Below, in pieces: positions 3,508-21,806 of a DNA stretch of 64,000 bases. The stretch is from assembly GCA_029560465.1 (NCBI GenBank), contig JAKQKX010000073.1, positions 79,411 through 143,410 on the forward strand, given 5' to 3'. This DNA comes from Candidatus Omnitrophota bacterium. Its GTDB lineage: Bacteria; Omnitrophota; Gorgyraeia; Zapsychrales; JANLHA01. The notes beneath the pieces were generated by a model. The model did not search any database. It was given only the letters and a program-made list of their open reading frames with translations, and was not told where the DNA came from. How positions within the stretch are numbered: position 1 is the first letter of the stretch; each line of letters starts with the position of its first letter. The position numbers and the translations under genes were made by a program.

Positions 3508-3625
3508 TAATAATATTAATATTAAATAAATAAAATTAATTATTAAAAAAATTGGCTTTCCGCTTGTTTTTTGATATTTCAAAGGGTATACTTACATTTG
3601 TAACACAGTAACTTAAGGAGGAGAT

Positions 3626-4639
3626 ATGTTGCATAATAAACAAAAATTGACAATCGTAGTTGGCTTTTTTTTATTTGTGTTTGCTTTTGGGTGTGAAAAA
3701 ACATCATCATCTCAAATCAATAATCCTCAAGCTATTAAAACCAAACCAACCACCCCTGTTCAGCTTGCGCAAAATACCGCCCCTGTTAAACAGGCGGTTG
3801 TGTCCCCTGCTCAAGCGGAAGAAAAAAAACCTGTCGCCCCTGCGGGCCTTACCAAAGAAGCTGCTCTTTCCTCACCTGTTGCCGGGAATGTTTTAGCCAA
3901 AGTCGGGACCTGGACGTTGACCATAGAGGACTTTAATGAACGGCTGGAAGCGCTAAAAGAAGTTGTTCCGGATTATGATGCCACGGATATTGAGCAGAAT
4001 AAAATGATTTTGGAAGAACTTATTCGTCAGCAACTTTTAGTGCAGGACGCAGAGAATACGGGTGTTTCTAAAAACAAAGATATAGCACAGGCTGTTGAAG
4101 AATTTCGACGCACTCTTTTGGTGAGAGAAGTAGCCAATACCCTCACGAAGGATATTTCAGTGACAGAAGAGGAAGCTAAAGAATATTATGAAGCAAATAA
4201 AGAAGAATTTATGGATCAGGCACAGTGGAGGGTTAGAGAACTTGTTTTAAATACAGAAGAGGAAGCTAAGCAGGTTTTGGTAGAGCTTTATCAAGGCGCT
4301 GATTTTGTAGAAAAGGTAAAAGAGAAATCAAAAAGCAACTCGGCTTGGCAAAAAGGAGACTTGGGATTAAAATCCGAGTTTGATTTTCCAAAAATGCAAA
4401 AGGTCGTTGAGGCCTTAGAGGTCGGAGACGTGAGCGGGGTTTTTCAAGGGCCAAATGGCTATTATATTGTTAAATTAGAGGAAAAACAAGGCGGGGAGCC
4501 TCAGGATTTTGAGGATATTAAGGAAGATATAATTACAGGGTTGACTTTATTAACACAACAACAGGCTATTTTGGGGCATTTAGAAAAGTTAAGACAGCAG
4601 ACGGATATACAAGTTAACTTAAAATTATTAGAGGAGTAG
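3626..4639 (+). CDS. SurA/PrsA-like peptidyl-prolyl cis-trans isomerase lipoprotein (parvulin-type)
   Basis: Signal peptide with lipobox 'FAFGC'. C-terminal parvulin/rotamase-like segment 'WQKGDLGLKSEFDFPKMQKVVEALEVGDVSGVFQGPNGYYIVKL'. Strong RBS AAGGAGGAG. Confidence 0.6.
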   Translation: MLHNKQKLTIVVGFFLFVFAFGCEKTSSSQINNPQAIKTKPTTPVQLAQNTAPVKQAVVSPAQAEEKKPVAPAGLTKEAALSSPVAGNVLAKVGTWTLTIEDFNERLEALKEVVPDYDATDIEQNKMILEELIRQQLLVQDAENTGVSKNKDIAQAVEEFRRTLLVREVANTLTKDISVTEEEAKEYYEANKEEFMDQAQWRVRELVLNTEEEAKQVLVELYQGADFVEKVKEKSKSNSAWQKGDLGLKSEFDFPKMQKVVEALEVGDVSGVFQGPNGYYIVKLEEKQGGEPQDFEDIKEDIITGLTLLTQQQAILGHLEKLRQQTDIQVNLKLLEE

Positions 4640-4643
4640 GCAA

Positions 4644-5447
4644 ATGAATTTAGAAAACAAGAAACAAATAGCCATTATTATTTTGGCCGTGGGGCTCGGG
4701 CTTGTGGCTTCTGTAGGAACTGGCCACTATATTCAAACCCGGGTTGACCAGGAAACGGCTAAAATATCTCAAGAATTTGAGAATAAAAAAGTTAAGCCTA
4801 TGATGCGGGAGATTGATTCTTTGCGCAAGGAAATGCAGAAGCTTGCCAGCATGCAGGCGGCCACGGCTACAAAGGTCCAAGAGCAAAAACCCTCGGAATT
4901 ACCAGCCGTTCCCAAGTCATCATTGGCGTTGCGTACTCCTGCGGGGAAGCGGGCTTATACCGTCCGCATCGATTCTTTATCGGCCGTTGGTGGTTTGGTC
5001 AATCCAGGGGATTATATTGATGTGATTGCGCACATGGATATCCCCGACCCGGTTTCTAATTCTAATCAAAATGTGTCTTCCATGGTTTTTCAGAATATTC
5101 AGATATTGGCGGTCGGGACGAACCTTCAGGCGCCGGGCGGGTATGAACAGCAGCAGACCGCAAGGGCGCTTAATATTACGTTTGCGTTAACTCCGGAAGA
5201 AGCCAGTTTGATGTCTTTTATTGAAAAACACGGGAGAATGCAACTTATTCTTCGCGCTCCCGCTGAAACAGAAACGGAAATTATTCAGGCGGCATCCTGG
5301 AGCGCGTTAGCCGATTATGTGTTTGAAAAACAAGGAACGGAGTTAATAATTCCTAAAGAAAGAGCGGTTATTCAGCCTGTTTCTACCGGTCGAGTTGATG
5401 AAGTGAAGCCGTTTATTCAAATCTTTCAGGGAGGCAGAAGCCTTTAA
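4644..5447 (+). CDS. cpaB: Flp pilus assembly protein CpaB/RcpC-like
   Basis: N-terminal TM anchor. Conserved CpaB-like blocks 'AYTVRIDSLSAVGGLVNPGDYIDVIAHM', 'QNIQILAVGTN', 'ITFALTPEEASLMSFIEKHGRMQLILR'. Lies immediately upstream of a secretin. Confidence 0.65.
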   Translation: MNLENKKQIAIIILAVGLGLVASVGTGHYIQTRVDQETAKISQEFENKKVKPMMREIDSLRKEMQKLASMQAATATKVQEQKPSELPAVPKSSLALRTPAGKRAYTVRIDSLSAVGGLVNPGDYIDVIAHMDIPDPVSNSNQNVSSMVFQNIQILAVGTNLQAPGGYEQQQTARALNITFALTPEEASLMSFIEKHGRMQLILRAPAETETEIIQAASWSALADYVFEKQGTELIIPKERAVIQPVSTGRVDEVKPFIQIFQGGRSL

Positions 5448-5535
5448 AACGGCTGGCTTTTTAGAGCATCCCGATGATTTGAGGTTAGTGTGGGGTTTTT
5501 CGGATAAATTATTCTGATGGCAAGGGAGTGATTGT

Positions 5536-7479
5536 ATGCACAAAATAACTAGTACTAAACAATTAATCGTTAGGGGTGTTCTGGTTCTCTGTTTTATTGT
5601 ATCTCAAATTTCCGTGACTCCGGCCCTGGCTCAGGTTCAGGAGGTTTTTGATTCTGCGGAGACACAGGATGTTTATTTGTATAAAGGGGACCTGATTTCG
5701 TTAAAAGTGTATCAACTGACAAGAATCGCCATTAGTACGCCGGGTATAGTAGAGATTGCGAACGCGGATATTGACGAATTGCTTATCGTTGGGCAACAAA
5801 TAGGAGAAACGCGGCTGTTTATTTGGGATGAATATGGGAAAAGACAGGTTTTTGTCCGGGTTTTACCTGAAGATTTGGATGCGATTATGGCGCGCATACA
5901 AAGGCTGTTGGACGCTATCGGGGTCTCGACGGTTAAAATGGAAAAAAATGTTTTTGAACGAAAAATTGTTTTAACCGGGACTGTTCTTAGTCAAAAAGAA
6001 GCGGCTCTTAATAAGGTGTTGGACCCTTTTGAGAGCATTGTCTTTAATTATGTGGACGTATATAGCGAGCTTATACAGATTGATGTGCAGATTTCAGAGT
6101 TGAACACAACGATACAAAAGGCGTTGGGGATTGATTGGAACACCGGCGCTGACGGGATGATTCTGGCTTATGAGGAAACGATGCCCGCCTTTGATGGCAG
6201 CGTTAAGGATTTGTTCAAGATCGGAGATTTTCGAAGAACTTCCGCTATCCAGGCGATTGTGACGGCGCTCATTGCGGAAGGGGAGGCTAGAATTTTGTCG
6301 AAGCCCAGCATTGTGGTTAAAAATGGGGAACAAGCATCGTTTCTCGTTGGCGGGGAAATTCCGGTGAGGAGCACCACAACCTCTACGGGAGGAGCCAGCG
6401 TTCAAGAAAATGTAGAGTATACATCTTATGGGATTGATGTTAAAGTCACGCCGGAGATTGTTGGGGAAAAAATCGAAATTAAATTAGCAGTCGCGATCAG
6501 AGATATTGATGCTTCCAATGCTGTTGGAGAGAACGTGGCGTTTACGAGCAGGAACGCAGACACAACGCTTTTTTTGGATGACGGACAAACCATTGTTTTG
6601 GCGGGGCTTATTAAACACAATAAAGCAGAGACCGTTTCCGGTGTCCCGTTTTTACGAAGGATCCCGATTGTCGGCTTTTTATTCCGCAACAAAAACTGGC
6701 CGACGGACTCAGAGCAGGAAGTGGTTATTTCTATGACGCCCAGGATCGTAACGCAGAAAAATATGAATTTCGAAAACAGGGAGATTCGCAAGAAATATTC
6801 TATAGCGGAAGATTTATATCAAGAAGAAGCCGGGCTGGTGGCGGAAGCAAGTCCGAGGAAGACAGCGGAGAAAAAACAGCCGGTTGATGACGAAGTAAGT
6901 TCTGATAAGCTGGATTCTATATCGGACGAAATTGACGCTATCCTCGCCGAAGATTTAGAAGATGTCGACGACTTTCCTGTTTCGGAAGAGTTAACCGATC
7001 AGGAAATGGACGCGATGGTCTCCGGGGAAGATGCGGTGGTTGCGGACCTGGTGGAAGAGGCTGACGCTGATGCGTCTCAGTCAGAGCCTGAAATCGAGGA
7101 AGAAGCGCCGTTACCCGAGCCTTCAGTTGAAGAAGGCGTGAGCATTGATGAGGCAACGTCTCAAGCCATTACGGAATATGTTCAAACGGTTCAGAAGAAG
7201 ATTTCTAGGGCGATCTCTTTTCCCATGGAGGCCAAAGAGCATGGATGGGAAGGAACGGTTGTTCTTTCGTTGGTTATTTTAAACGACGGCACGCTAAACG
7301 ACGCGCGTGTTCAAACGTCTTCAGGGCACGAGGCTTTTGATAAAGACGCTATTAATACGGCGCGCATTTTAGCCCCGTTTTCCTCTTTCCCCGAGGCATT
7401 GAAATTAGAAGAATTGGTTGTAACCATACCGATTGTTTACAGCCAGGAAGCTGTATTAGAGGGAGCGGGCGCAGAATAA
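5536..7479 (+). CDS. cpaC: Tad/T2SS-type secretin (CpaC/RcpA-like) with acidic linker and C-terminal TonB_C-like domain
   Basis: Secretin core 'ILSKPSIVVKNGEQASFLVGGEIPV...DGQTIVLAGLIKHNKAETVSGVPFLRRIPIVGFLFRN...EVVISMTPRIV'. Followed by a D/E-rich linker, then 'YVQTVQKKISRAISFPMEAKEHGWEGTVVLSLVILNDGTLNDARVQTSSGHEAFDKDAINTA', matching the TonB C-terminal domain consensus (Y..I...YP..A...G.EG.V....I..DG.V.D..V..SSG...LD.AA). Confidence 0.8.
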   Translation: MHKITSTKQLIVRGVLVLCFIVSQISVTPALAQVQEVFDSAETQDVYLYKGDLISLKVYQLTRIAISTPGIVEIANADIDELLIVGQQIGETRLFIWDEYGKRQVFVRVLPEDLDAIMARIQRLLDAIGVSTVKMEKNVFERKIVLTGTVLSQKEAALNKVLDPFESIVFNYVDVYSELIQIDVQISELNTTIQKALGIDWNTGADGMILAYEETMPAFDGSVKDLFKIGDFRRTSAIQAIVTALIAEGEARILSKPSIVVKNGEQASFLVGGEIPVRSTTTSTGGASVQENVEYTSYGIDVKVTPEIVGEKIEIKLAVAIRDIDASNAVGENVAFTSRNADTTLFLDDGQTIVLAGLIKHNKAETVSGVPFLRRIPIVGFLFRNKNWPTDSEQEVVISMTPRIVTQKNMNFENREIRKKYSIAEDLYQEEAGLVAEASPRKTAEKKQPVDDEVSSDKLDSISDEIDAILAEDLEDVDDFPVSEELTDQEMDAMVSGEDAVVADLVEEADADASQSEPEIEEEAPLPEPSVEEGVSIDEATSQAITEYVQTVQKKISRAISFPMEAKEHGWEGTVVLSLVILNDGTLNDARVQTSSGHEAFDKDAINTARILAPFSSFPEALKLEELVVTIPIVYSQEAVLEGAGAE

Positions 7480-7658
7480 AATTTAGTTTGTTTCGAAGCG
7501 TCCGTTGAGGGAAAAATGGCCTGCCCTTTCCTTTTCAAGAGGGGATGCTTCGATTTCCTTCCAAAGAATTCTTGCCAAAAGCAATTTTCGTTTGTATACT
7601 AAAAACTATTAGTTAAAAGATGTTTTTAAAAACAATCGTAGGGAGCTCTTAAAATTTA

Positions 7659-9821
7659 ATGAGTTCAAAAATAGTTACTATTTTTAGCAACAAAGGCGGT
7701 GTTGGAAAAACGTTTGTCAGCGTTAATTTGGCAACCGCTTTAGCCTTGTCTGGAAAGCGGGTTTTGTTGCTTGATATGGATTTTCAGGCCGCGCATGATA
7801 TGGCCCGCATGTTAAATTTGGCGCCCAGAAACAGCTTGGTTAATTTGTTGGCTGAAATAGAAAAGAGCGAAGATGCCGAGGTCATCAAAAAGTACGTGAG
7901 CTCTCATTCCAGCGGGTTGGATTTTCTCCCGGGCGTTTTGCATGCCAAGCAAGCAGGACACATCTCTTCCGATAATATTAAACCTTTTTTTAGAAAGGTC
8001 GGCCAGGTTTACGACTTTATCATTGTTGATGTTGGGAAATTATTCAGTGAGACAATGTTAACGGTTCTTGACCACTGCAATGTTATTTTTCTTGTCGCGA
8101 CGCCTGATGTTTTGGCCGTCTATCAGGTGAAGTGGTGTTTGGAGATGTTGCAAAGCCTGCATTTTCCTTTAAAGATGGTTAAGCTGATTTTAAACCGGGC
8201 AGAAAGCCGAGGAGGTGTTGCTTGGCAGGAGGTCCGGTCTGCTTTGGCCTGCGAAATTTTTTCTCGCATTCCTTCCGACGGGCGCGCTGTCGGCATGGCC
8301 TTAAATCGCGGGATTCCCGTTATTATCGATTCTCCCAAGAGCCCGGTAACCGAAGCGTTTAGCCGGATGGTTAATGACCTGAAAAAAGAAGAACTTTTTG
8401 TCCAGGCTTTTGAGATTGAACGGGAAAGGACCACTGAAGGACTGGATAAATCCGGGAAGTTTTGGGAAAAATTTGGCATTACACCACAAAATATTCCAGG
8501 AGGCGTTTTTTCAAAAGAAGAGGATGAAATTACTTCCCTAAAAAGAAGGATTCATGAAAAATTGGTCAGCAGGCTTAATATTGAAGATTTAAGCCCGGAC
8601 AACCTCAGCGACCCCGCCAAAGCGGCGGAACTTAAGGATGATGCCAGAAAAATTGTCAGCAATTTGCTCATTGAAGAAAAAGGAGCGATGATCTCTTCTC
8701 ATGAAGAACGGCGACGCCTTGTTAAAGAAATTGTGGACGAAGCGTTGGGGTTAGGGGCGTTAGAAGAGTTTTTGGCTGACCCCGATGTTTCAGATATTAT
8801 GGGAAACAATAAAGATGAATTATATATTGAAAAACACGGGAAGCTCATTTTAACAAACAGAAAGTTTGTTTCCGACCAGCAGATGAGGGCTATTATTGAC
8901 CGCATTATTGCCCCTTTGGGCCGGCGTATCGATGAATCAACTCCTATGGTGGACGCGCGGCTTCCGGATGGATCACGGTTTAATGCCATTATCCCCCCGC
9001 TTTCTTTGAATGGCCCGATGATTACGATCCGTAAATTTGGGGCGGAGCGATTAGACGTCGAAGACCTCGAACAAAAATATCGCAGCTTTAGCAAAACGAT
9101 GAGAGAACTTTTGCAGGCCTGTGTCTTGGCGAGAAAGAATATTATTGTGTCGGGAGGAACCGGGTCCGGGAAGACCACCTTGTTGAATGTTATTTCGCAG
9201 TTTATTCCGGACAATGAGCGCATTATTACGATCGAGGATGCTGCGGAATTGCGGTTAAAAAAGAGCCATTGGGGAAGGCTCGAATCCCGCCCGACCAACA
9301 TTGAGGGGAAAGGCGCGGTGACCATCCGGGACCTCTTTATAAATTCTTTACGTATGCGTCCGGACCGGATTCTTATCGGGGAGTGTCGAGGTCCAGAAGT
9401 CCTGGATATGTTGCAGGCCATGAATACGGGCCATGATGGATCCATGACCACCTTGCATGCCAACTCTACCCGGGATGTTTTAGTCCGCATGAGTTCCATG
9501 ATCCTGCTTAGCGGAATCGAATTGCCGGTGAGAGCTATTAATGAAATGATCGCATCCGCCATAGACCTTGTGGTTCATGTGGCCAGATTTTCCGATGGAT
9601 CCAGAAAAATTACAGGGATAACAGAGGTTGTTGGCCTTACCAGTGAACACGCCTTGGATTTGCGGGACATTTTTATTTTTAATCAGAAAGGCATTGATGA
9701 AAACGGAACAATTATTGGAGATTTCGAAGCCACGGGGTATGTTCCGAAATGTTTTGAAGATTTCGTGACGATGGGGCTTTCTATTGACAAGACGATGTTT
9801 GTTAAACCCTCCAAAAGCTAG
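7659..9821 (+). CDS. fused CpaE/TadZ-like (ParA/MinD-family) + CpaF/TadA (VirB11-family secretion ATPase)
   Basis: N-terminal deviant Walker A 'SNKGGVGKT' (MinD/ParA class). C-terminal 'SGGTGSGKTTLLN' Walker A at ~9155-9180, 'RILIGECRG' and 'GHDGSMTTLHANS' typical of TadA/CpaF. One continuous 720-aa ORF. Confidence 0.8.
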   Translation: MSSKIVTIFSNKGGVGKTFVSVNLATALALSGKRVLLLDMDFQAAHDMARMLNLAPRNSLVNLLAEIEKSEDAEVIKKYVSSHSSGLDFLPGVLHAKQAGHISSDNIKPFFRKVGQVYDFIIVDVGKLFSETMLTVLDHCNVIFLVATPDVLAVYQVKWCLEMLQSLHFPLKMVKLILNRAESRGGVAWQEVRSALACEIFSRIPSDGRAVGMALNRGIPVIIDSPKSPVTEAFSRMVNDLKKEELFVQAFEIERERTTEGLDKSGKFWEKFGITPQNIPGGVFSKEEDEITSLKRRIHEKLVSRLNIEDLSPDNLSDPAKAAELKDDARKIVSNLLIEEKGAMISSHEERRRLVKEIVDEALGLGALEEFLADPDVSDIMGNNKDELYIEKHGKLILTNRKFVSDQQMRAIIDRIIAPLGRRIDESTPMVDARLPDGSRFNAIIPPLSLNGPMITIRKFGAERLDVEDLEQKYRSFSKTMRELLQACVLARKNIIVSGGTGSGKTTLLNVISQFIPDNERIITIEDAAELRLKKSHWGRLESRPTNIEGKGAVTIRDLFINSLRMRPDRILIGECRGPEVLDMLQAMNTGHDGSMTTLHANSTRDVLVRMSSMILLSGIELPVRAINEMIASAIDLVVHVARFSDGSRKITGITEVVGLTSEHALDLRDIFIFNQKGIDENGTIIGDFEATGYVPKCFEDFVTMGLSIDKTMFVKPSKS

Positions 9822-10171
9822 TGCGTATCACTAATCAAACAAAAAACACGCTTATTGCCGACCGAGCCCGGTTAGCCGACACGATTGTGTCGCGCTTGGT
9901 GGGGCTTCTTTCCCGGGCATCGTTGTCTTCCCAGGAAGGGTTGGTGATTACAGAGTGCCGGCAAATCCACATGTTGTTTATGCGATTTGCTATAGATGTC
10001 ATTTTCGTCAACAGGGACAACAAGGTTGTAGGGCTGGTCAGAGATATTAAACCTTTCCGAATGAGCCCGTACTTTTTTCGGGCCCAGAAAGCCATAGAAT
10101 TGCCCGTCGGGGTGATTGATTCCTCTCGAACAGAAAAAGGAGACACCCTTTTCTTGAAGGACGAAGAATAG
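9821..10171 (+). CDS. DUF192-like (COG1430) small protein
   Basis: GTG start overlapping the previous stop. Motif 'IDVIFVNRDNKVVGL ... PVGV' resembles the DUF192 family. Weak call. Confidence 0.45.
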   Translation: MRITNQTKNTLIADRARLADTIVSRLVGLLSRASLSSQEGLVITECRQIHMLFMRFAIDVIFVNRDNKVVGLVRDIKPFRMSPYFFRAQKAIELPVGVIDSSRTEKGDTLFLKDEE

Positions 10172-10191: not shown

Positions 10192-10476
10192 TTAAACCAG
10201 GTCTTCGGGATCAATGTCTTTGGCCGCCTGCTCGATTTCGTCGAGCCATCGTTTACAATGTCGGCAAATTTTTGCTTCCAGTAGTATTTTTTTCCCGCAA
10301 AACAGACAATGCTTTTTATCAAGGCTTGGAAAGTCTGTTCTTATCACGGTATCAATGATGAATTGTAAACAATGTGGACAACGGAGATTTTCTTCTGATG
10401 GGAGGATTTCGTAGCAATAAGGACATTTAATCATGGCTCGGTGCTTTTCTGTGTCGACGTCCTCTTTCAGCGCCAT
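10192..10476 (-). CDS. zinc-ribbon protein (four CxxC pairs), hypothetical
   Basis: 94-aa ORF with CPYC...CPHC...CLFC...CRHC spacing typical of double zinc ribbons. Sits in a gap between + strand genes, divergent from 10730. Confidence 0.45.
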   Translation of the reverse strand: MALKEDVDTEKHRAMIKCPYCYEILPSEENLRCPHCLQFIIDTVIRTDFPSLDKKHCLFCGKKILLEAKICRHCKRWLDEIEQAAKDIDPEDLV

Positions 10477-12833: not shown

Positions 12834-12992
12834 ATGGGGCATAATAAGGGTAAGCAAGAAAAAGGACAAAACATAGTTGAATATGCCATCGTCGTGGCCT
12901 TGGTCGCATCAGCCATGCTTGCCATGAGCACCTACGTGTTTAGATCTATTCAGGCAACACAACAGGTGATTTCAGAAGGATTCAGAGATTAA
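12834..12992 (+). CDS. flp: Flp/Fap-type pilin (pilin 1)
   Basis: 52 aa. 'GQNIVEYAIVVALVASAMLAM' is a G/XXXXEY Flp prepilin processing motif plus hydrophobic helix. RBS GGAGGTGA 7 nt upstream of ATG 12834. The ORF track's longer start at 12768 adds non-pilin N-terminal residues. Confidence 0.7.
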   Translation: MGHNKGKQEKGQNIVEYAIVVALVASAMLAMSTYVFRSIQATQQVISEGFRD

Positions 12993-13056
12993 AATGGCGG
13001 AATGGAAAACCGCCTAGCTTTGAGTGGTATGGATCAAACTATAGGAGGAATTACTA

Positions 13057-13263
13057 ATGGTATACAAGAACAGAAAAAAGAAAGGGCAAAGCACCCTCGA
13101 GTATATTATCCTGGTGACAGGTGTTATTGCCATTCTGATTATTTTCTTAAACCCGACTAATGGTATTTTTAACACAGCGTTTAATTCAACCTTGCGTACG
13201 GGTACGAATGGCATGTTTGATATGGCCAATCGGTTACAAACATCTCGTTATGATAATCCGTAA
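13057..13263 (+). CDS. Flp-type pilin (pilin 2)
   Basis: 'KKKGQSTLEYIILVTGVIAILIIF'. RBS AGGAGGA. Confidence 0.7.
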   Translation: MVYKNRKKKGQSTLEYIILVTGVIAILIIFLNPTNGIFNTAFNSTLRTGTNGMFDMANRLQTSRYDNP

Positions 13264-13302
13264 TTAATTATCAAGAGACAAAAGTAAATGGAGGAAACAT
13301 AA

Positions 13303-13677
13303 ATGTTTAGAAAGTTAATTAAGAATAAAAAAGCACAGCAAACAGCCGAATACGCGCTGTTAATTTCTCTTGTTGTCGCGGCGGTCATTGCTATGCAAAC
13401 TTATGCGCAACGAACCATTCAGGCGAGAATTCGTGACGCTTCTGCCTATTTGACAGACTCTACAAGCGCCTTAGGTAGAACCAACCAGTATGAACCTTAT
13501 TATCTGGAATCTGATTACAATGTCCTGCGTGATGACAGGGAAGAAGAATTGCAAGGGCAAAGAGCCGACTCCTCTGGGTTGTTCCAGTTAGACACAACCA
13601 GCAATAGAACTCGCGCAACCGGCGGTTATCAGACATCCAATTATGACACCAATTTTGGTGTAATTAATGGTATCTAA
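13303..13677 (+). CDS. Flp-type pilin with extended C-terminus (pilin 3)
   Basis: 'KKAQQTAEYALLISLVVAAVIAM' (Ala at -1 instead of Gly), then 'QRTIQARIRDA'. RBS GGAGGA. Confidence 0.65.
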   Translation: MFRKLIKNKKAQQTAEYALLISLVVAAVIAMQTYAQRTIQARIRDASAYLTDSTSALGRTNQYEPYYLESDYNVLRDDREEELQGQRADSSGLFQLDTTSNRTRATGGYQTSNYDTNFGVINGI

Positions 13678-13730
13678 GATCCAGATAACTTAGTGTAACG
13701 AAAATCTGAATTTTAAGGGAGGAATTTTCA

Positions 13731-14051
13731 ATGTTTAAGTTTCTAAGAAAAATAAAAGGGCAAAGTACTTTAGAGTACGCCGTCTTGATTATCATCGTCA
13801 TCGGTGCTCTTTTATCTATCCAGGTTTACATCAAAAGAGGTGTTCAGGGTAGATTAAAGAGTGCAACAGATGACATCGGTGATCAATATTCACCGGGCAA
13901 CTCAAACATCCGTCGTGTTGTGACTACAGTTAGCAATACTGCTGAAACGTTCACCTATGGTGTTTCTTCAACAACCTTGAACACGGATGAAGTTACCGAA
14001 ACATTGCAGAACCAGGTTATCATTAACGCCGAACAGGAATTCTGGGGTTAA
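13731..14051 (+). CDS. Flp-type pilin (pilin 4)
   Basis: 'KIKGQSTLEYAVLIIIVIGALLSI' followed by the conserved 'KRGVQGRLK'. RBS AGGGAGGA. Confidence 0.7.
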   Translation: MFKFLRKIKGQSTLEYAVLIIIVIGALLSIQVYIKRGVQGRLKSATDDIGDQYSPGNSNIRRVVTTVSNTAETFTYGVSSTTLNTDEVTETLQNQVIINAEQEFWG

Positions 14052-14173
14052 TTTTAGTTTATTAGATAACCAGAATGTTTTAAGCTAAATAAAGTATGGC
14101 TTACTTGAGGGGGAGAACAACTTTCGGGTAAGCCATACTTTATTTATAATCAGTTTGAACATTAAAATACTCT

Positions 14174-14566
14174 ATGAAACTTAACAAGAAGGGCCAAAAT
14201 TCTTTTGTTGAATATGCCACGACTTTTTTTCTGGTTGTTTCGATTATTTCGGTGATGGGCACGTATGTCCGTCGAGTATTGCAGGGGCGCACAAGAGACG
14301 CCCTGTATTATATGGCCGGCACCGTGCAGGCGGATTATAATTGCGGTGGAGCCGCAGATTGCGCCCTTCCGAATCATGGCTCTTTTTATTTTCAATATGA
14401 GCCGTATTACAGCAATTCAACGACAACGCGATATACGGACACGACCACGACCATGACAGAACAGGGCGCCTTTCCTCTGGGGTCGGGGATCGTAGAGCAG
14501 ATTTTTAATCACCAGATTAGCGCCATAACAAACCAAACGCAGTTGCCACCGGCTTTGGCTGATTAA
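14174..14566 (+). CDS. Flp-type pilin (pilin 5)
   Basis: 'KKGQNSFVEYATTFFLVVSIISV' then 'RRVLQGRTRDA'. Confidence 0.6.
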   Translation: MKLNKKGQNSFVEYATTFFLVVSIISVMGTYVRRVLQGRTRDALYYMAGTVQADYNCGGAADCALPNHGSFYFQYEPYYSNSTTTRYTDTTTTMTEQGAFPLGSGIVEQIFNHQISAITNQTQLPPALAD

Positions 14567-14586
14567 TTAAAAATTTTAATAAGAAT

Positions 14587-14925
14587 ATGAGAAGAAAGTA
14601 TAAGAATTCCGCGCAAACATTTTTAGAGTATGCTATGCTAGTGAGTGTCGTTGTCGCGGTCCTGATTTCTCTTACCCCGTTATTGCGCAGAGGGGTCCAG
14701 GGGATGATTCGGGTTGTTTCCGACCAAGTCGGCAATCAATCCGGCGCGGAGCAGCCCGGCGGGCTCGATGGGCATTTGGTTGAGCAGATAATAGACGTGG
14801 ATCAAGCCTCCGTCAGGCGGCGGAGGGAAGATTTTGGAGAGACGCGGGTGGATTATGACGGCACGGTGTCACAAACAGTTACGACCACAACCACGAATTT
14901 AGGATTTCAGTATAGAGATAACTAA
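14587..14925 (+). CDS. Flp-type pilin (pilin 6)
   Basis: 'NSAQTFLEYAMLVSVVVAVLISL' then 'RRGVQGMIR'. Confidence 0.65.
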   Translation: MRRKYKNSAQTFLEYAMLVSVVVAVLISLTPLLRRGVQGMIRVVSDQVGNQSGAEQPGGLDGHLVEQIIDVDQASVRRRREDFGETRVDYDGTVSQTVTTTTTNLGFQYRDN

Positions 14926-14950
14926 AAGGCTTTAAAATGAGGGTACGGGC

Positions 14951-15259
14951 ATGAAGTTATTACGAGGGCAAAGCACTTTGGAATATGTGACGCTTATTAC
15001 AATTATTTTAGGGGTATTCCTGGGGATGGGGACTTATTTTAAAAGAGGGGTTCAGGGGCGGTGGAAGGAATCCGTTGACGGAATGGGCGACCAATACGAC
15101 CCGCGGGTGACTAATACAGATATTACTGAGCGGGCGAGTGGGTTTTCCTCCACGCGTATTACCACAATCCCGGTTAACGCCGGGGTCTGGACAATGCGGG
15201 ATGACGATTCCAACATGCTTGAAGAAAAGTACGGGGCGTCAAGAGTGGCCGCCTATTAA
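14951..15259 (+). CDS. Flp-type pilin (pilin 7)
   Basis: 'LRGQSTLEYVTLITIILGVFLGM' then 'KRGVQGRWK'. Confidence 0.7.
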   Translation: MKLLRGQSTLEYVTLITIILGVFLGMGTYFKRGVQGRWKESVDGMGDQYDPRVTNTDITERASGFSSTRITTIPVNAGVWTMRDDDSNMLEEKYGASRVAAY

Positions 15260-15279: not shown

Positions 15280-16995
15280 ATGAAATGTGACAAAGGAAAG
15301 ATTCGGAACCCTCGATTAGGCCAATCAGGGACGGAGTTGGCTATCTTTGGGGCCATGCTTATTTTTATAATCGGTTCCATTATTAAAGCGGGACTGCAGG
15401 TTAGTATGCTTAACAATATGCAATTACGAGCTTTGCGCCTTGCCTTGAGCGAATCTTACCGGACGTCCGAAGGCGAGTACATTGGTTTTGCTGGGGACGA
15501 AGGCGCGAACTCCCGGAACGTGGCGTCTATTGTTATTTTGGAAGACAGATTGAATGTGGATGCGGGTAAGAAATTCGGGTCTCGGGACAGGTTCCCGATG
15601 ACAGCCAGCGCCAGCGCTTCTATGACAAAAAATTTATTCCGTCCGACAGATTTTGGAGATCGCCGGGACCTGCCGGTGTCGGATATTTATATTAACGGCC
15701 AACGCTTTCCGTTATTAGGGGCGGATTTCAAAACAGTCACCCTTGCCAACGCTGACGGAAGCCGACCTGCCTGGATACCAGCGTGCAATGGCGCGGCACC
15801 GGCATATTTTAATTCCAGCGCCCCGCCCGCGAATCCTCCCTACGGAATGTGCTGGTGGAATAGCTGTGTTACTTATTCGAGTTGTGTTTATGTGGGATAC
15901 GGGGGCAATTATGAATTAGGTTACATGGGGGAATGTGTTATGGCAACAGGAGGGGCCGGCACGGGAGAGTATGATTTGGTGACAAATTCTGCGGGATGTT
16001 CGTTGCTGTTTACTATATCAGGCAATTATCCTAAGAGTAAAACGTGTTGTTTTGGGACCACATGTCAAAAAAATTGTAATAATCTTCCTCAAGACGTCCG
16101 TTTTGATTATGATTTTGACGGCGTATCTGATGTGCCTGCCGGGAGCCGGGACGGACAATTCTGGCAGTGGTTTTTAATCGCCGGGGTAGTTGACGGAACA
16201 GCGTTAACCTTGCCGTGGGGTGGCGTGCCGGGAATTTATGTTGATCCCAGCGGAGAGAAGGAATCGAAGAACGACAGCGTTGATGTTGACGGCGATTATT
16301 ATGAAGAGTCTATCCTTAGTTATTCTGCCTTGAGTTCTGGCGTTCTTCGAACCGTGAACGTGATTGACGGGGAGGAAGGAGATATGACCAGTTCATTCCT
16401 TTCGGATGCCCGTCAAGCCGGGGAATGGCGTTTTGCCGGGACCATCGGAGGCTCTTGTGGAGTTGAGCCGACAGGGAATTGCGTTATCGGATCAACGACG
16501 ACCGGAGAGAATGCTCTGGGGGTGTGTTCGAATTATAAATGCCTTGCTCGTTCAGTTGGTTTTTCTGAGGGCGCGCAGGTTTATACATTTACGGAATCTA
16601 ATCCAGGCCAAGAAACAGGTCAGGGAATGTATCTTCGGACGGAAGAAGGCCCGATTTTTAATGCCAACATGTCGCAATACACCCGGAGCACGGAAAGGCA
16701 TGACCAGCTAGATGTTGTGGAGCGGTTGGTTCAGCTTACCAAGGACACGGGCAGGTTTTGTGCCGACGATGTTAATCCTCGCGTCTGGGGAACTTCGGCG
16801 TGGGCGCGCGATAATGGGCTGTATGGAATTCAGAATCCGGTCGAAGTTTGTACCCGGCCCAGCACGGGAACCAATTGTTATATGGGGGGCGTCGCACAGT
16901 TGACATGTTTTGACAGGGACAACTTGATGTTGTTTGTCAGGAGCCGGATTGCCGATCTTAGAGGGAGGCGTTGGATAAGAAGATACGCCCCGTAA
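15280..16995 (+). CDS. TadE-like pseudopilin with large Cys-rich extracellular domain
   Basis: N-terminus 'GQSGTELAIFGAMLIFIIGSII' matches the TadE-family signature (G/XXXE[LF]A + hydrophobic helix). The 571-aa body has about 25 Cys in clusters (CWWNSCVTYSSCVYVG, CCFGTTCQKNC). Confidence 0.6.
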   Translation: MKCDKGKIRNPRLGQSGTELAIFGAMLIFIIGSIIKAGLQVSMLNNMQLRALRLALSESYRTSEGEYIGFAGDEGANSRNVASIVILEDRLNVDAGKKFGSRDRFPMTASASASMTKNLFRPTDFGDRRDLPVSDIYINGQRFPLLGADFKTVTLANADGSRPAWIPACNGAAPAYFNSSAPPANPPYGMCWWNSCVTYSSCVYVGYGGNYELGYMGECVMATGGAGTGEYDLVTNSAGCSLLFTISGNYPKSKTCCFGTTCQKNCNNLPQDVRFDYDFDGVSDVPAGSRDGQFWQWFLIAGVVDGTALTLPWGGVPGIYVDPSGEKESKNDSVDVDGDYYEESILSYSALSSGVLRTVNVIDGEEGDMTSSFLSDARQAGEWRFAGTIGGSCGVEPTGNCVIGSTTTGENALGVCSNYKCLARSVGFSEGAQVYTFTESNPGQETGQGMYLRTEEGPIFNANMSQYTRSTERHDQLDVVERLVQLTKDTGRFCADDVNPRVWGTSAWARDNGLYGIQNPVEVCTRPSTGTNCYMGGVAQLTCFDRDNLMLFVRSRIADLRGRRWIRRYAP

Positions 16996-17014
16996 GGATT
17001 ATAGGTGAATTGTT

Positions 17015-17314
17015 ATGAAAACACGGAAAAGGAATCAAAGGAAAAAGCTTTATAAATGGCCGGGACAGGTGTCTTTGGAGTTTATGTTTGGGATGATCGG
17101 TGTCGTTTTGCTTGTGGTCGGGATGATTCAGGTTTTTGCCTGGACAGGCAATGACCTGATGAAACGTTTTAACTCTCATGAAGCTCTTTTGGTTTCTCCG
17201 GTTGGCACTTCTCAACCTGCGGCTCCTTTAGAACAGGTCCGGCCGATGTTTTATTCGGTCACAAAAATAAACGCAACGGTTAATAGCAATATTTTTGGAG
17301 AGGAAGCTCCTTAA
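17015..17314 (+). CDS. small TadE-like pseudopilin
   Basis: 'WPGQVSLEFMFGMIGVVLLVVGMIQ' pilin-like N-terminus. 99 aa. Its 3' end overlaps the next ORF start by 20 nt. Confidence 0.45.
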   Translation: MKTRKRNQRKKLYKWPGQVSLEFMFGMIGVVLLVVGMIQVFAWTGNDLMKRFNSHEALLVSPVGTSQPAAPLEQVRPMFYSVTKINATVNSNIFGEEAP

Positions 17315-20300
17315 TTCTAAATTTATTACCCCGGGGGTCAAGTTGTTGCATGTTTTTTACAAAGGCGTAAGGCGAGTCCGAAGATGGCAACATAAAAAGC
17401 GGAATGCTTTTTTCTTTGTTCCCAACAACAGCGGTGATTCCACAAGAATGCCGCCTCGGCATGTTGCCGGGCAAGTCGGGCTGATCCTGATTCTGGCCGC
17501 GGCCATAGGGCTGATTTTATATGCGGTCACGATTAATATCGGCAGGATTTCTCAAGGCAAAACCTTGACTATTATTGCCGCCAACACGGCGGCATCCAAG
17601 ATGGCGTCGTTTATCGCCAGTTATGGCCAAATGCTTTTTATGACGTCTTTGGGGGGAGAAACAAAAATTTGTGCCTGGACCGGATTTTTAGTAAAGCTCA
17701 TTGCGGCCATTATTGTTGTGGTCATTGTTGTTATTTGCGCCGCTACCGAACAATGTGAGGGATGGGGGTTAGCCGCTGCGATTGTCGCGGCGGTTCTTGT
17801 TGTGGCTGCCGCGGTTATTGATGTCACAATAACCCAGCCGGGCATTACGTCCATGTGGAACAAAATGATGAAGGACTCGATGGGGCCGAAAGAAATGGCC
17901 GTGGAACTGGGGGTGCAAACCGCCTTGATGACAGCGGTGAATGACCCTGCCCAAATTCCGGATTTATTCGACTTTGACACTGACGGTTCTTTTGGCAATT
18001 TAGCGGACCCTCTTAATAAAACCACGGCCCCGGATTATATTTCCCGCTTTGCGTATTATTATACCCGCCGCCTTCAAGGTATTCCTGATTTGAATCTTAC
18101 GATCATTGATGACTTCTTGTCTGCGTTGACGGATTTCTTGTTTGGAGGCGATCCCAATCGCTGTACGGTTTGGGGGTGCGACACGGATGATTGGGGCCTT
18201 ATTGATCCCCTAGATTGCCTGTTAACTCCCGGGCACCCCTGTTGCCCGGCCAATCCCGTTGGGAACATGCGTTTCCCGGCCATGTGTGACCCCTGTTGCG
18301 TCATTAACGATCCAGACCTTCGGCCAGCGTGCTGTGCTACGGGAACTTGCGTGGAGGACGAGGGGTTTGCCGGCGGGGATCCAAACACATGTGATGAGAG
18401 AAGCCCTTACCACACCCCGCTTCCTCCCGCAGCGCCAAACGCAAGCTTGACGTACCCGTATATTTTTAGAGGCATAAATGAAAACTCCACGAACAATAAA
18501 AACAGTTCAGGCGCTTGGGTTCCGGCCAATATTTCTTTTCGTGAATGGCTCGGCTTTGACGACGAGCATCATCAATACGCCGTTAATCCGGCCCGGCCTA
18601 ATTGGCATTATTTAATTGACGGAACCGGGGCGAATTTAGACCACTCGCAGTTGATCCGTTCCGCTCCGTTGGAGTATGATTTTTATATGGAAGACGCAAC
18701 CGGTTATTATTTGAATGACGAGAGGCCGGGGATTTTTCCGTTTTTCTATAAACTGGCGGACTGGGGTATGGATTTACAGGCTTTGACCTATGGCGCCCTG
18801 ACGCCGGATCCGCCTGATCCTCATCCGGTCCGGGATAACCTTGAGTGCCATTTATGCGATGTAGACGGGATTGCCGCGGGCACGGTCCCTGCGGTTTGCG
18901 CCGGAATGACGTATCCTTCTGAAATTGGTGTTGCGCTTGAACTTCCCGAAACTCCGGATACAGCGCTTTATAGCGGCGGCTGGTGTGTGGATGCTGCGAA
19001 TACCGGAGCCGACGGCGACCCACCCCAGTTGTTGGACGTGGTCCCCAATATTGTTGATCTTTTAGCCGATGATGCTGTCTGCGCTCAGGATGTGGGCGGC
19101 TGGAAAAGAGGGGCTGATCAATTCTGTGATCCGCCTGACCAGTGGCCTTATATGGCCGAATGCATAAAAGCCGGTGGTCCTTCCGGCGGGGGGGGGCCAC
19201 CTTGCGTGGAGGTCGATCCCGTAAGTGGGACTTCTTGGCCGGTTGATTGTGCTTGCGGAACCGGCGGGGCTTTGCCTCCGACGCCTCCCGTAGACCGGAC
19301 GTTGGCCGCGAACAACTTTCAATATGTGACCACCAACTGGCCTGATGATAAATTAGATGATTTTATCTATGGATTGCCGGAATTCTATGAATGGGCGACA
19401 ACCCTTTTTGGCAAAGATAAGGATACTTTAGAAGACACTTTCGATGATTGGTATGAGGAAGCCGCTACTTGGATTGAAGCGCCGTGCCCGAGCGGTAATG
19501 CTGCGGATTGTGCGGGAAGTTGTACCGGAGACGTGGATGGCGGATACTGGTATGTCTGGCGCGATGATTTGGGCTCTTTCTATACTCCAATTGTAAATTG
19601 GCTGAACCCACCCGATGCGGATCTTTATGTTGGTTCCGGGTGTTTTACGAACAGCTCCGCAGACCCGGCGGTTTGGTGTGTTCCTCCGCCTCAAGCGGCC
19701 GCTAATAAATATGCGGACCCCACATATCTGGGTTTTCAGTCAGGATATAACGGGTTGGAATGCCCTGGAGTAAGCCAGGAGGAACAGGCGTCTTTTGACA
19801 TTAGCGCAGATGGCCGAGGCGACATTGAAGATGTTATTGCGTGTTTTAATTGGAACCTTTTTGATCCGGCTGAAGATCCGTCCGGGGCCCCAATTATTCA
19901 CCCTGTAACCGGGGCGCAGGCTGTAGGAAATTTTGAAAAATTTGAGGCGTGTAAGTGGGATTGCGACAATAATCCGGTTAATTCCATAAACAGCTGTCCG
20001 ATCTTGCCCAGGTCGCTGGTGCCGGGGTTTGATGCTTTAATATTTACGGTTCCAATGCCCGAAGCAGATTTGATCGCGTTAACATTGTGTTTAGGAACAG
20101 AATCGATTCCAACCTGTAATGATGATTGTTCGTCGTTGCCTGGCGGATATGGCATCCCCGCTTTTGTTCCAACGTCCGATAACGCGGCCCTTCCGGCGCC
20201 AGACACGTCTTTGTTGACCAATTTAAGGGCCCTGTATGCTTTTTGCGAGGCGAATCCAGCTTCAAGTCTTCCAAACCAGTGCCGGGACCAGGGGACAACG

Positions 20301-21341
20301 ATTGCTTGTGCCAGCCCCACCATTTTGTCAGACGCCTTAAACTGTTCCTGCACGTGGTACGGGTTACCGACGGATCTTTTGGGAACCTGTGGACAGCTTT
20401 GCGGTATTGGGGCGACCCCGTTTTTTGATGCCATTGAAACAGCCCTTGATGATAATATAGGCTCGTGCGGAGAAACTGATCCTGGAGAATGGAAAGATTT
20501 GTTAGACCAGAGCGTTTTAGCCGCGGGGAATCAGGCGATGAAAATGTCAAAACGCTTGAATTTGTTGGAGGGACGAGAGGAAGAGGCGATTTCGATAAGG
20601 AATGTGTTGTATAATGCGCTTCTTCATATCGACGCCTTTCTCACGGGCCCGGCCCAGGGGCTTATTGATGCTTGTAAGGCATGGGGGAATATTTATCCTC
20701 CGGCCACCACCTCTTTCGCCATTTATGCCTGGCAGGATCTCCCCAAAGATGTTTATAACACGATTCGGGGGGATTGGCATGTTGTTAAAGTGGAAGTTCG
20801 AACTCCGGGGCGGTGTAACGCCGCGTGTGGAACGGATCGATGGCCGTATATTGACACATACACCAAAAGCTGGGGGATGAAACGCTGTTATGAATTAAAG
20901 GAATGGACAGGCAGGGTCAAAGCCCGGGTGATCCGTTATGACGAGGATACTGTCGGCAGCCGGATACTTTTCCCGGATGGAACTCTATTATGGAAACCAC
21001 AATACTATCATCCGGAAGGGTCAGATCAGGATCCTACGGATTTGGAGCTGACCTGCGCTATTATGATTGATCCCAATATCGCCGCCCAGACATGGGAATG
21101 GGGGTGGAGGAGCGCTTTTATGGTTAATCAGACGCCGACAGCCAGCGCCACGCCACCTAGGGGGTCGCCCGAGTATTTGGATTGCTGGAATTTTCTGCAT
21201 GAAAGTTTGTTAAGATATGGTTATTCAACGGCGACGTGCGCTCAATATTTTCTAGGAGGCGGATCGGGGTACAGTGGAGACCAGGGGTTTCGTGTCCGTT
21301 TTGTGGAGTGTGATAACGCCTTTATTAGTGGAAATAATTAG
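17295..21341 (+). CDS. TadG-like large Cys-rich membrane-anchored protein (putative pilus-associated adhesin/tip protein)
   Basis: 1348-aa ORF. After an in-frame Met at 17448, 'GQVGLILILAAAIGLILYAVTINIGRISQGKTLTIIAANTAASKMA' resembles the TadG N-terminal domain (TM helix followed by D/N.GR...LQ..ADAAALA). Two further very hydrophobic helices follow. The ~1100-aa extracellular region has many Cys clusters (CCPANPVGNMRFPAMCDPCCV, CCATGTC). The true start may be 17448 rather than 17295. Confidence 0.55.
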   Translation: MERKLLNSKFITPGVKLLHVFYKGVRRVRRWQHKKRNAFFFVPNNSGDSTRMPPRHVAGQVGLILILAAAIGLILYAVTINIGRISQGKTLTIIAANTAASKMASFIASYGQMLFMTSLGGETKICAWTGFLVKLIAAIIVVVIVVICAATEQCEGWGLAAAIVAAVLVVAAAVIDVTITQPGITSMWNKMMKDSMGPKEMAVELGVQTALMTAVNDPAQIPDLFDFDTDGSFGNLADPLNKTTAPDYISRFAYYYTRRLQGIPDLNLTIIDDFLSALTDFLFGGDPNRCTVWGCDTDDWGLIDPLDCLLTPGHPCCPANPVGNMRFPAMCDPCCVINDPDLRPACCATGTCVEDEGFAGGDPNTCDERSPYHTPLPPAAPNASLTYPYIFRGINENSTNNKNSSGAWVPANISFREWLGFDDEHHQYAVNPARPNWHYLIDGTGANLDHSQLIRSAPLEYDFYMEDATGYYLNDERPGIFPFFYKLADWGMDLQALTYGALTPDPPDPHPVRDNLECHLCDVDGIAAGTVPAVCAGMTYPSEIGVALELPETPDTALYSGGWCVDAANTGADGDPPQLLDVVPNIVDLLADDAVCAQDVGGWKRGADQFCDPPDQWPYMAECIKAGGPSGGGGPPCVEVDPVSGTSWPVDCACGTGGALPPTPPVDRTLAANNFQYVTTNWPDDKLDDFIYGLPEFYEWATTLFGKDKDTLEDTFDDWYEEAATWIEAPCPSGNAADCAGSCTGDVDGGYWYVWRDDLGSFYTPIVNWLNPPDADLYVGSGCFTNSSADPAVWCVPPPQAAANKYADPTYLGFQSGYNGLECPGVSQEEQASFDISADGRGDIEDVIACFNWNLFDPAEDPSGAPIIHPVTGAQAVGNFEKFEACKWDCDNNPVNSINSCPILPRSLVPGFDALIFTVPMPEADLIALTLCLGTESIPTCNDDCSSLPGGYGIPAFVPTSDNAALPAPDTSLLTNLRALYAFCEANPASSLPNQCRDQGTTIACASPTILSDALNCSCTWYGLPTDLLGTCGQLCGIGATPFFDAIETALDDNIGSCGETDPGEWKDLLDQSVLAAGNQAMKMSKRLNLLEGREEEAISIRNVLYNALLHIDAFLTGPAQGLIDACKAWGNIYPPATTSFAIYAWQDLPKDVYNTIRGDWHVVKVEVRTPGRCNAACGTDRWPYIDTYTKSWGMKRCYELKEWTGRVKARVIRYDEDTVGSRILFPDGTLLWKPQYYHPEGSDQDPTDLELTCAIMIDPNIAAQTWEWGWRSAFMVNQTPTASATPPRGSPEYLDCWNFLHESLLRYGYSTATCAQYFLGGGSGYSGDQGFRVRFVECDNAFISGNN

Positions 21342-21362
21342 AAAAGTATTTAAGGACGAAAT

Positions 21363-21806
21363 ATGTTTCGGCAAAGGAGAAGTGCTCAATCTATATTGGA
21401 GTATATGACCTTGATTGTTTTTTTATTATCAAGCTTGTTTGTCTTTCAAGGTTATATTTTAAGGGGTTATTATGGAAGCTGGAAAAAGGCGGGGGATGCT
21501 TTTGGCTCAGGGCGTCAGTATGACCCCAGGCCTTTTGGGAATTATGGAGATGGCGGCGGGACTTTAGAATGTTTTTTTGATGCCACCCACTGTACGTCAG
21601 GGACCGGCCCGGCCCGGCCGTGTACGTTAATTAACAGATGGATTTCAAAGGCCTGTTATGATGCGACACCCTGTGATTGCACGATGCCAATCGGAACGAC
21701 GGGGTATATCACACAGTGTTTGCAGTGTTTAGAAAATTGTAGCGAGTCTGTAGCTGCGGGAGCGCTTTGTGGGGACGTGACGACATCGAGGGTTTTAATT
21801 GATTAA
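21363..21806 (+). CDS. Flp-like pilin with Cys-rich C-terminal domain (pilin 8)
   Basis: 'RRSAQSILEYMTLIVFLLSSLFV' Flp-type N-terminus. The 100-aa tail has 12 Cys (CTSGTGPARPCTLINRWISKACYDATPCDCTM...CLQCLENC). Confidence 0.55.
   Translation: MFRQRRSAQSILEYMTLIVFLLSSLFVFQGYILRGYYGSWKKAGDAFGSGRQYDPRPFGNYGDGGGTLECFFDATHCTSGTGPARPCTLINRWISKACYDATPCDCTMPIGTTGYITQCLQCLENCSESVAAGALCGDVTTSRVLID

Follow-up and report, generated by a model that had tools for sequence, protein, structure and literature searches.

The question raised by this locus is why the outer-membrane channel of a pilus system in a Candidatus Omnitrophota bacterium should end in a TonB-type domain. Type II and type III secretion, type IV pili and the export of filamentous phage all pass the outer membrane through secretins, and the way in which these channels are targeted, assembled and anchored varies by system, usually through pilotins and peptidoglycan-binding accessory proteins. 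The gene concerned lies in a stretch of 64,000 nucleotides (nt) of contig JAKQKX010000073.1 (positions 79,411 to 143,410), referred to below as the window, and its product joins a secretin to a C-terminal TonB_C-like domain through an acidic linker, as the first-pass annotation of this DNA had claimed. We show here that the fusion belongs to a Tad-type pilus locus and recurs across the phylum; very little doubt, in our view, attaches to the architecture, to its Tad context or to its conservation throughout the phylum. We further propose, as the most likely role of the TonB_C domain, that it serves the secretin as a tethered periplasmic docking or anchoring module, a statement which, taken whole and with its mechanism included, we hold at about even odds.

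The gene is one unbroken open reading frame (ORF) that starts with ATG about 8 nt after a Shine-Dalgarno sequence (AAGGGAG) and encodes 647 amino acids (aa) followed by a stop codon (Table 1). The signal peptide was read from the sequence by its K/R n-region, hydrophobic core and A-L-A cleavage motif; a helix is modelled at residues 5-25, and the signal region is only 21% conserved. The Secretin family of Pfam (PF00263) matches aa 244-405 over positions 1-168 of its 169-position model (E 1e-42, 146 bits against a cut-off of 27.5), and T2SS-T3SS_pil_N (PF13629) matches aa 50-109 (E 1.3e-7, 31.6 bits against a cut-off of 23). When the N-terminal 415 aa were compared with the PDB by sequence, 21 secretins were matched at E <1e-3, the best being the Acidithiobacillus caldus secretin 8jvb (3e-32) and the second best RcpA of P. 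aeruginosa, 8odn (5.6e-24). Foldseek likewise matched secretins, with VirB9 N-terminal domains among the fold matches of the N-domain. In a full-length AlphaFold2 (AF2) model, built on an alignment of 75 homologues and having a mean predicted local distance difference test score (pLDDT) of 79.5, the two N-terminal domains, the secretin core and the C-terminal domain are confident (pLDDT ~95 for the N-domain), and a helix at aa 407-437 is weakly supported. The second periplasmic domain, aa 114-189, is probably N3-like, as judged by its predicted secondary structure.

The identity proposed for the last ~100 residues is borne out by family, sequence and fold comparisons. Pfam places TonB_C at aa 560-635 well above its cut-off (E 6.9e-14, 52.5 bits against 24.6) and TonB_2 at aa 547-619 (E 1.1e-6, 29 bits), and the NCBIfam model tonB_Cterm (TIGR01352) scores 55.4 bits against a cut-off of 27.1 (E 5.8e-15). 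By sequence the closest PDB entry is the C-terminal domain of Helicobacter pylori TonB (E 1.3e-4), with TolA at 0.04. The structure of aa 539-643 is predicted very confidently (pLDDT ~95) with the topology alpha-alpha-beta-beta-alpha-beta-alpha, and the top 24 Foldseek matches in the PDB of a model of the domain alone are all C-terminal domains of TonB, HasB, FusB or TolA, led by H. pylori TonB (E 2.5e-5, TM 0.77); BtuB-TonB (2gsk), TolA-TolB (6s3w) and TolA (1lr0) are also among the fold matches.

The segment that connects the two parts had been described as D/E-rich and ~90 aa long. Its acidity stands; its length has to be revised to 133 aa (aa 413-545), over which 18 D and 26 E face 9 K/R (33% D/E, net charge -35, 5% proline), although the most acidic and disordered core, aa 438-538, measures 101 aa (36% D/E) and so comes near the first figure. 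The pLDDT falls below 50 over aa 439-455 and 476-534. Across 118 homologues the linker ranges from 25 to 232 aa, and its mean pairwise identity is 11-17% (26% for the last 11 residues of the protein), as compared with 58% for the secretin core, 51% for TonB_C, 51% for the N-domain and 40% for the domain at aa 114-189. Ten positions of TonB_C are invariant in 75 sequences (Y548, P563, A566, G573, G585, S596, G597, D602, P614 and Y635), including the P of the Y/F-P motif, the S-G of SSG and the Y635 of the terminal strand VTIPIVYS. This pattern points to strong purifying selection on the TonB_C module and to none such on the tether, and the conserved edge strand VTIPIVYS together with the Y/F-P motif look like a putative protein-binding surface. 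The acidic character is itself not constant, because a divergent clade has K/E/R-rich helical spacers in place of acidic linkers; the description of the linker as acidic is thus right for the clade of the window but not as a general trait. The unchanging feature is a long charged tether with one or two TonB_C domains, and acidity varies.

It was necessary to consider that the fusion might be a frameshift or chimeric artefact, or else a neutral and decaying appendage. A 100% identical protein annotated from Candidatus Omnitrophota (P0001) is on record from four contigs, and Secretin plus TonB_C were found together in 118 of the 120 closest database proteins, down to ~40% identity. The two exceptions are P0030, which is cut by a contig end, and P0048, presumably likewise truncated, from a contig of 2.2 kb. 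A second survey, in which one genome per GTDB species was searched with a TonB_C-specific pattern, gave 56 loci, and in 55 of these TonB_C and secretin share one ORF; in the remaining one (L050) the TonB_C part occupies a separate short ORF, and a stand-alone copy of 139 aa was also found among the proteins (P0121); both probably reflect a local frameshift or an incomplete gene call. Misassembly does not account for the fusion, since the identical protein comes from four contigs and the architecture recurs in more than 100 homologues, and decay has practically no chance of being the explanation of a module that is conserved like the secretin core and duplicated in several lineages. The survey of homologues that had been suggested for this protein therefore shows no singular oddity. 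Two tandem TonB_C copies occur in 11 of the 118 proteins and in 9 of the 56 loci (about 10-16%).

As judged from these sequences, the fusion is the standard form of the Tad-type secretin across Omnitrophota. With the C-terminal 108 aa as query, HMMER was run exhaustively against cluster representatives and gave 243 at E <=1e-10, and the best single-domain matches were essentially all secretin fusions or fragments thereof; the other members of the top 150 were multi-TonB_C repeat proteins (such as M56 peptidase, FG-GAP and OEP fusions), and no N-anchored canonical TonB was found among these 150. This search superseded a word-index search with the C-terminal 109 aa alone, which returned only two proteins and was uninformative. 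Most of the titles read Omnitrophota or Omnitrophica, and deviant labels of metagenome-assembled genomes (MAGs) include 'uncultured Planctomycetales', Phycisphaerae, Elusimicrobia, Elulimicrobium, Bathyarchaeia and Hydrothermarchaeota. A wider spread of the fusion, as these MAG labels might suggest, was rejected; we read them as labelling noise because the loci have the Omnitrophota gene order and the one labelled Planctomycetales (L005) encodes a protein 94% identical to that of the window.

Within the phylum, the divergent clade (P0205, P0179 and P0265-P0268) has secretins of 1016-1109 aa with two TonB_C domains each, separated by K/E/R-rich, helical, TolA-domain-II-like spacers of ~170 aa, in an unchanged gene order. 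One locus of this clade (L061, secretin at 2584-5721) has a second cluster after the Tad-like core that resembles type IVa pilus or type II secretion systems and comprises PilM, PilO, a secretin with STN and Secretin_N domains and an MshE-type ATPase. When P0205 was used as the query, CpaC-type secretins from Armatimonadetes, Acidobacteria, Abitibacteriaceae and Duganella were also reached, all of them lacking a TonB_C domain. Some of the CpaC-type secretins of other phyla, labelled Armatimonadetes or unnamed (P0353, P0366, P0371 and P0344), begin with a LysM domain followed by pil_N and BON, and further ones have low-complexity C-terminal tails with no globular end.

That the secretin is of the Tad type, as the first-pass annotation had it, agrees with the pil_N domain, the match to RcpA and the operon in which the gene stands. 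CpaB/RcpC, TadZ, CpaF/TadA, TadB, TadC and Flp-type pilins are encoded alongside it, in an order kept in 54 of the 56 loci, and the locus is a Tad-type (type IVc, Flp) pilus system. The order PPIase-RcpC-secretin-TadZ::CpaF-DUF192, in which PPIase stands for a peptidyl-prolyl isomerase, is kept almost everywhere in the 56 loci, often downstream of gyrB-gyrA, CN-hydrolase and malate dehydrogenase genes. RcpC is also matched by TIGR03177, pilus_cpaB (86.4 bits against a cut-off of 71). In canonical Tad systems TadZ and CpaF are separate genes, whereas here they are fused into one protein, with AAA_31/CbiA/ParA at aa 4-240 and T2SSE at aa 364-643 (E 6.8e-60, Pfam). No prepilin peptidase (TadV/CpaA) was found among the scanned ORFs of the window, and it may be encoded elsewhere in the genome.

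Table 1. Features of the secretin-TonB_C gene and of the surrounding Tad-type locus (window coordinates; domain limits in aa of the fusion protein)
Feature	Position	Strand	Evidence
Secretin-TonB_C fusion gene	5536..7479	+	ORF list, translation; identical deposited protein
Sec signal peptide, aa 1-33, cleavage ...TPALA/QV	5536..5634	+	Sequence reading
CpaC/RcpA-type N-domain, VirB9-like beta-sandwich, aa 37-110	5644..5865	+	Pfam, AF2, Foldseek
Second periplasmic alpha/beta domain, putatively N3-like, aa 114-189	5875..6102	+	AF2, pLDDT ~95
Secretin beta-barrel core, aa 234-405	6235..6750	+	Pfam, PDB matches, Foldseek
Charged tether, aa 406-545	6751..7170	+	Composition, AF2
TonB/TolA-type C-terminal domain, aa 546-643, leading helix from aa 539	7171..7464	+	Pfam, NCBIfam, PDB, AF2, Foldseek
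SurA/PrsA-like PPIase lipoprotein	3626..4639	+	Pfam Rotamase_2 E 3.3e-20; in 47/56 loci
CpaB/RcpC, periplasmic alignment-ring protein	4644..5447	+	Pfam RcpC E 6.9e-23; in 54/56 loci
TadZ-like ParA/MinD + CpaF/TadA-type T2SSE ATPase fusion, 720 aa	7659..9821	+	Pfam; in 54/56 loci
DUF192 protein	9821..10171	+	PF02643 E 4.3e-16; in 45/56 loci
Conserved 567-aa protein, N-terminus helix-turn-helix-like	10730-12433	+	No Pfam/NCBIfam match; same position in 36/56 loci
Seven small tandem Flp-type prepilin genes	12834..15259	+	Class III motif G/A-x3-5-E-Y, motif scan and translations
Large or minor pilin-like proteins (571, 99, 1348 and 147 aa)	15280..21806	+	Prepilin-type N-termini
TadB-like and TadC-like platform proteins, 284 and 296 aa	21842..23625	+	One T2SSF each, Pfam E 4.8e-18 and 1.4e-13
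Giant stop-free frame, at least 13,229 codons, running past the window end	24312-64000	+	Directly downstream of Tad cluster

The databases name the fusion protein 'TonB family protein' (NCBI) or 'pilus assembly protein CpaC' (JGI), and the Prokaryotic Genome Annotation Pipeline calls such secretins 'TonB family protein' or 'cell envelope integrity protein TolA' (records P0001, P0041, P0087 and P0258). Yet the protein is not a TonB, because it begins with a signal peptide that is cleaved off and not with an anchor coupled to ExbB/D, has no proline-rich spacer and has no exbBD nearby. Its N-terminus continues into 370 aa of secretin without an inner-membrane anchor helix, and no exbB or exbD was found in the window. 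On the same grounds the name 'TonB family protein' misleads, and it hides the secretin. This bears directly on the possibility that the domain is a genuine TonB/TolA-type force transducer, one that contacts TonB-dependent transporters or an ExbD/TolR-type stator and couples the pilus channel to nutrient import or to the proton-motive force. Such a function would suit the fold and motifs, which are nearer to TonB than to TolA (TonB_C 52.5 bits as compared with 29 for TonB_2, and TonB C-terminal domains as the top fold matches), and the long ER/K helices of the divergent clade could span the periplasm. However, a protein lacking an inner-membrane anchor cannot be energised in the manner of TonB or TolA; moreover, exbB/exbD, tolQ/tolR and TonB-dependent transporter genes are absent from the window and from ~12 kb around the 56 loci, and a survey of complete Omnitrophota genomes reports no canonical TonB-dependent receptor or sus import architecture among the genes that flank giant genes, where 'TonB-domain' genes do occur. 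We therefore regard force transduction of this kind as highly improbable.

Secretins share the trait of forming a 12-15-mer ring in the outer membrane, and the C-terminal domains of TonB and TolA bind strands of their partners by beta-augmentation. In RcpA, the short S-domain ends in four residues that bind the tetratricopeptide repeat (TPR) lipoprotein pilotin TadD, an interaction that is essential for assembly, and secretin structures show this C-terminal domain on the outer face of the barrel, at its periplasmic side, as the site of pilotin binding (PMC10499894). We propose that in Omnitrophota this pilotin-binding tail has been replaced by a long, flexible and charged tether ending in TonB_C. 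An assembled ring, of 13-14 subunits in RcpA, would then hang 13-14 TonB_C domains in the periplasm outside the barrel, and twice as many in the two-domain variants. By beta-strand augmentation, each domain might take up a peptide strand exposed on a partner protein and so dock the secretin to another envelope component in the manner of an inverted TonB/TolA tether, anchored in the outer membrane. In this way tether and domain could position, stabilise or assemble the channel, presumably without transducing the proton-motive force as TonB does, and they may take over the role of the handshake between S-domain and TadD pilotin. Such a replacement seems possible because neither a TadD nor any other TPR lipoprotein was found in the window's Tad locus (~20 kb around the gene) or in the three further loci L001, L003 and L061, and because the C-terminal tip is not conserved. 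Anchoring or docking by the TonB_C module fits the data, and its duplication, since 11 of 118 proteins and 9 of 56 loci carry two copies, fits an avidity-based binding module.

The many copies that a ring would bring close to the periplasmic vestibule lend a general plausibility to the idea, also raised in the first-pass annotation, that TonB_C gates or plugs the secretin channel. Nevertheless, the S-domain of solved secretins is outside the barrel, where it binds pilotins (PMC10499894), and in Tad machines the vestibule is filled by the ring of RcpC, the periplasmic conduit that binds the N-domain of RcpA (PMC12307814). What opens and closes a secretin are gate loops inside its core, and that core is conserved and complete in the fusion protein; a disordered linker of so variable a length (25-232 aa) is, besides, ill suited to a plug that must fit precisely. 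It is very hard to see TonB_C as a gate, and we assign this function only a slight chance.

The main competitor to docking on a protein is that TonB_C binds peptidoglycan directly and staples the secretin to the wall against the forces of pilus retraction, in which case it would be the functional counterpart of the AMIN domains of PilQ, of the LysM protein TsaP or of the N-terminal LysM on other CpaC-type secretins. Association with peptidoglycan has been reported for the C-terminal domain of E. coli TonB. The N-terminal LysM on the CpaC-type secretins labelled Armatimonadetes indicates that wall anchoring of Tad secretins evolves, the peptidoglycan pathway is complete in Omnitrophota, a low-affinity binding to the wall that is driven by avidity would be suited by the many copies in a ring and by the tandem duplication, and a linker of ~100 aa would suit the reach to the wall layer; Tad machines, furthermore, have no known peptidoglycan-interacting component (PMC12307814). 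On the other hand, binding of peptidoglycan is not established for the TonB_C fold, whose solved complexes are of protein with peptide; anionic wall material would repel an acidic tether; and the invariant Y/F-P motif, like the conserved edge strand VTIPIVYS, resembles a surface for binding protein. In view of this, direct binding to the wall is to be considered rather unlikely.

The proposal of a tethered docking module can also be taken further, to an inverted TonB/TolA that bears force and grips a partner in the periplasm or inner membrane (an Exb/Tol-type stator, for example, or the RcpC ring, or periplasmic loops of the adjacent giant protein), and so couples the Tad channel to the inner membrane. 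This extended form seems unlikely to us. If it were true, the coupling of the channel might be mechanical or energetic and might act during predatory attachment or giant-protein deployment, and it would amount to a new use of the TonB fold and to a pilotin-independent route of secretin assembly.

Several points weigh against the docking proposal. No conserved island resembling a TonB box was found in the variable segments of the PPIase, RcpC and DUF192 proteins (46-52 orthologues each), so that no partner emerged from them. The C-terminus is placed in the periplasm by analogy and would have to lie there for docking to take place. The absence of TadD holds for ~20 kb around the gene, and one may be encoded elsewhere in the genome. 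Direct binding to peptidoglycan would explain the same data. Lastly, linkers in some homologues are as short as 25 aa, so that a long reach is not always needed.

The genes that flank the secretin offer further observations. The stop codon of the PPIase lies 4 nt before the start of rcpC, and the two are apparently translationally coupled; the lipobox G-C-D/E of the PPIase is conserved across 47 orthologues. Under the sorting rule of E. coli, by which an Asp at position +2 retains a lipoprotein in the inner membrane, the PPIase would stay there. This lipoprotein, whose presence in the Omnitrophota locus was noted by West-Roberts et al., is a candidate for a dedicated chaperone or a pilotin surrogate for the secretin. 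Immediately behind the secretin, one locus (L025) has an ORF of 382 aa (6333-7481, +) that starts 3 nt after the secretin stop codon and has a signal peptide and an outer-membrane-barrel-like end (...GVQF). It was rejected as a general partner, having no homologue in the other loci or the window and no Pfam match; in L034 this place is taken by an ATPase-like gene that is unrelated to it. Between the DUF192 gene and that of the 567-aa protein, a minus-strand ORF of 94 aa (10192-10476) has two CxxC pairs and is zinc-ribbon-like, and L001 has a minus-strand gene of 79 aa at the equivalent position. The gene of the 567-aa protein is not the insertion of a mobile element, because it holds the same position in 36 of the 56 loci.

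The locus has ten ORFs with N-termini of the Flp-type prepilin kind, in which the motif G/A-x3-5-E-Y/F/L stands ahead of a hydrophobic helix; three of these ORFs (15280, 17015 and 21363) lead into or adjoin the large proteins of 571 and 1348 aa. No family in Pfam or NCBIfam matches the pilin-like proteins of 15280..21806. For the seven small tandem prepilin genes, a weak Class_IIIsignal match occurs at the equivalent position in L001 and L003. The pilin repertoire is unusually large for a Tad system. In the giant frame that follows the Tad cluster, Pfam detects a Peptidase_C39-like region (aa 221-302), a weak methyltransferase-like one (~aa 8,780-8,930) and two GGDEF stretches, the best at ~aa 9,620-9,740. 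This frame fits the published pattern of Omnitrophota giant genes beside secretion and pilus loci.

Omnitrophota are ultra-small, probably predatory or parasitic bacteria. The Tad-like locus is expressed in the one cultured representative of Omnitrophota during co-culture with its prey (PMC10066038), and since the Tad-like locus also adjoins the giant genes, the fusion belongs to machinery that is thought to be central to the lifestyle of these organisms. The occurrence of Tad/RcpA in Omnitrophota was reported by Seymour et al. without mention of TonB (PMC10066038), and West-Roberts et al. do not mention TonB either. A 2026 survey of giant-gene flanks counted 'TonB-domain' genes that it did not call secretins; these are probably the fusion secretin. 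In agreement with the first-pass annotation, which knew of no such architecture, our reading of the literature found no published description of a secretin-TonB_C fusion; the components and the locus are known, and the architecture of the fusion across the phylum is apparently undescribed. A TonB-type domain on a tether in place of a pilotin-binding tail, throughout a phylum, would represent a different solution to the assembly or anchoring of secretins and a use of the TonB fold apart from energy transduction. We expect it to be of interest to specialists on secretins and Tad systems and for the biology of Omnitrophota, with the mechanism put forward here as a proposal.

Like RcpA and CpaC, the fusion protein has a signal peptide, a VirB9-like pil_N N-domain of the kind reported for RcpA (PMC10499894), a secretin barrel and a Tad operon; unlike RcpA (PDB 8odn), it ends in a charged tether of ~140 aa and TonB_C, not in a short S-domain. 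Its last domain has the alpha-beta-beta-alpha-beta arrangement of the C-terminal domain of H. pylori TonB (5lw8/6sly) plus an extra N-terminal helix, found also in the long H. pylori construct and in HasB, and shares with the TonB domain the Y/F-P motif, the G-x-V strand, SSG and the terminal edge strand. TonB, however, is held by an inner-membrane N-terminal helix that pairs with ExbB/ExbD and reaches outward through a proline-rich spacer, whereas the domain of the window is attached to an outer-membrane channel through an acidic tether and points in the opposite direction. TolA belongs to the same fold superfamily, but it is the weaker match by sequence, its TolQ/TolR-interacting N-terminal anchor has no counterpart here, and spacers like its domain II occur only in the divergent Omnitrophota clade.

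Other secretins also have an extra periplasmic module, as do PilQ with its AMIN domains, PilQ with the LysM protein TsaP (PDB 6ve2) and the LysM-BON-CpaC proteins. Those modules are N-terminal or on a separate protein and are recognised peptidoglycan binders, while the module described here is C-terminal and of the TonB type. TonB_C is likewise found on outer-membrane barrels or channels in an FCB-group operon with a Wzi-like beta-barrel and TonB-C (bioRxiv 10.1101/2025.01.14.632903) and in a metagenome protein of 796 aa in which three N-terminal TonB_C domains precede a TolC-like OEP (P0196). These proteins and the LysM-bearing CpaC-type secretins are precedents for outer-membrane channels that have acquired an envelope-binding accessory. 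The scaffold, the phyla and the order of the domains differ from those of the Omnitrophota secretin, TonB_C being N-terminal in P0196, and yet the latter protein suggests a wider theme of outer-membrane channels combined with TonB_C.

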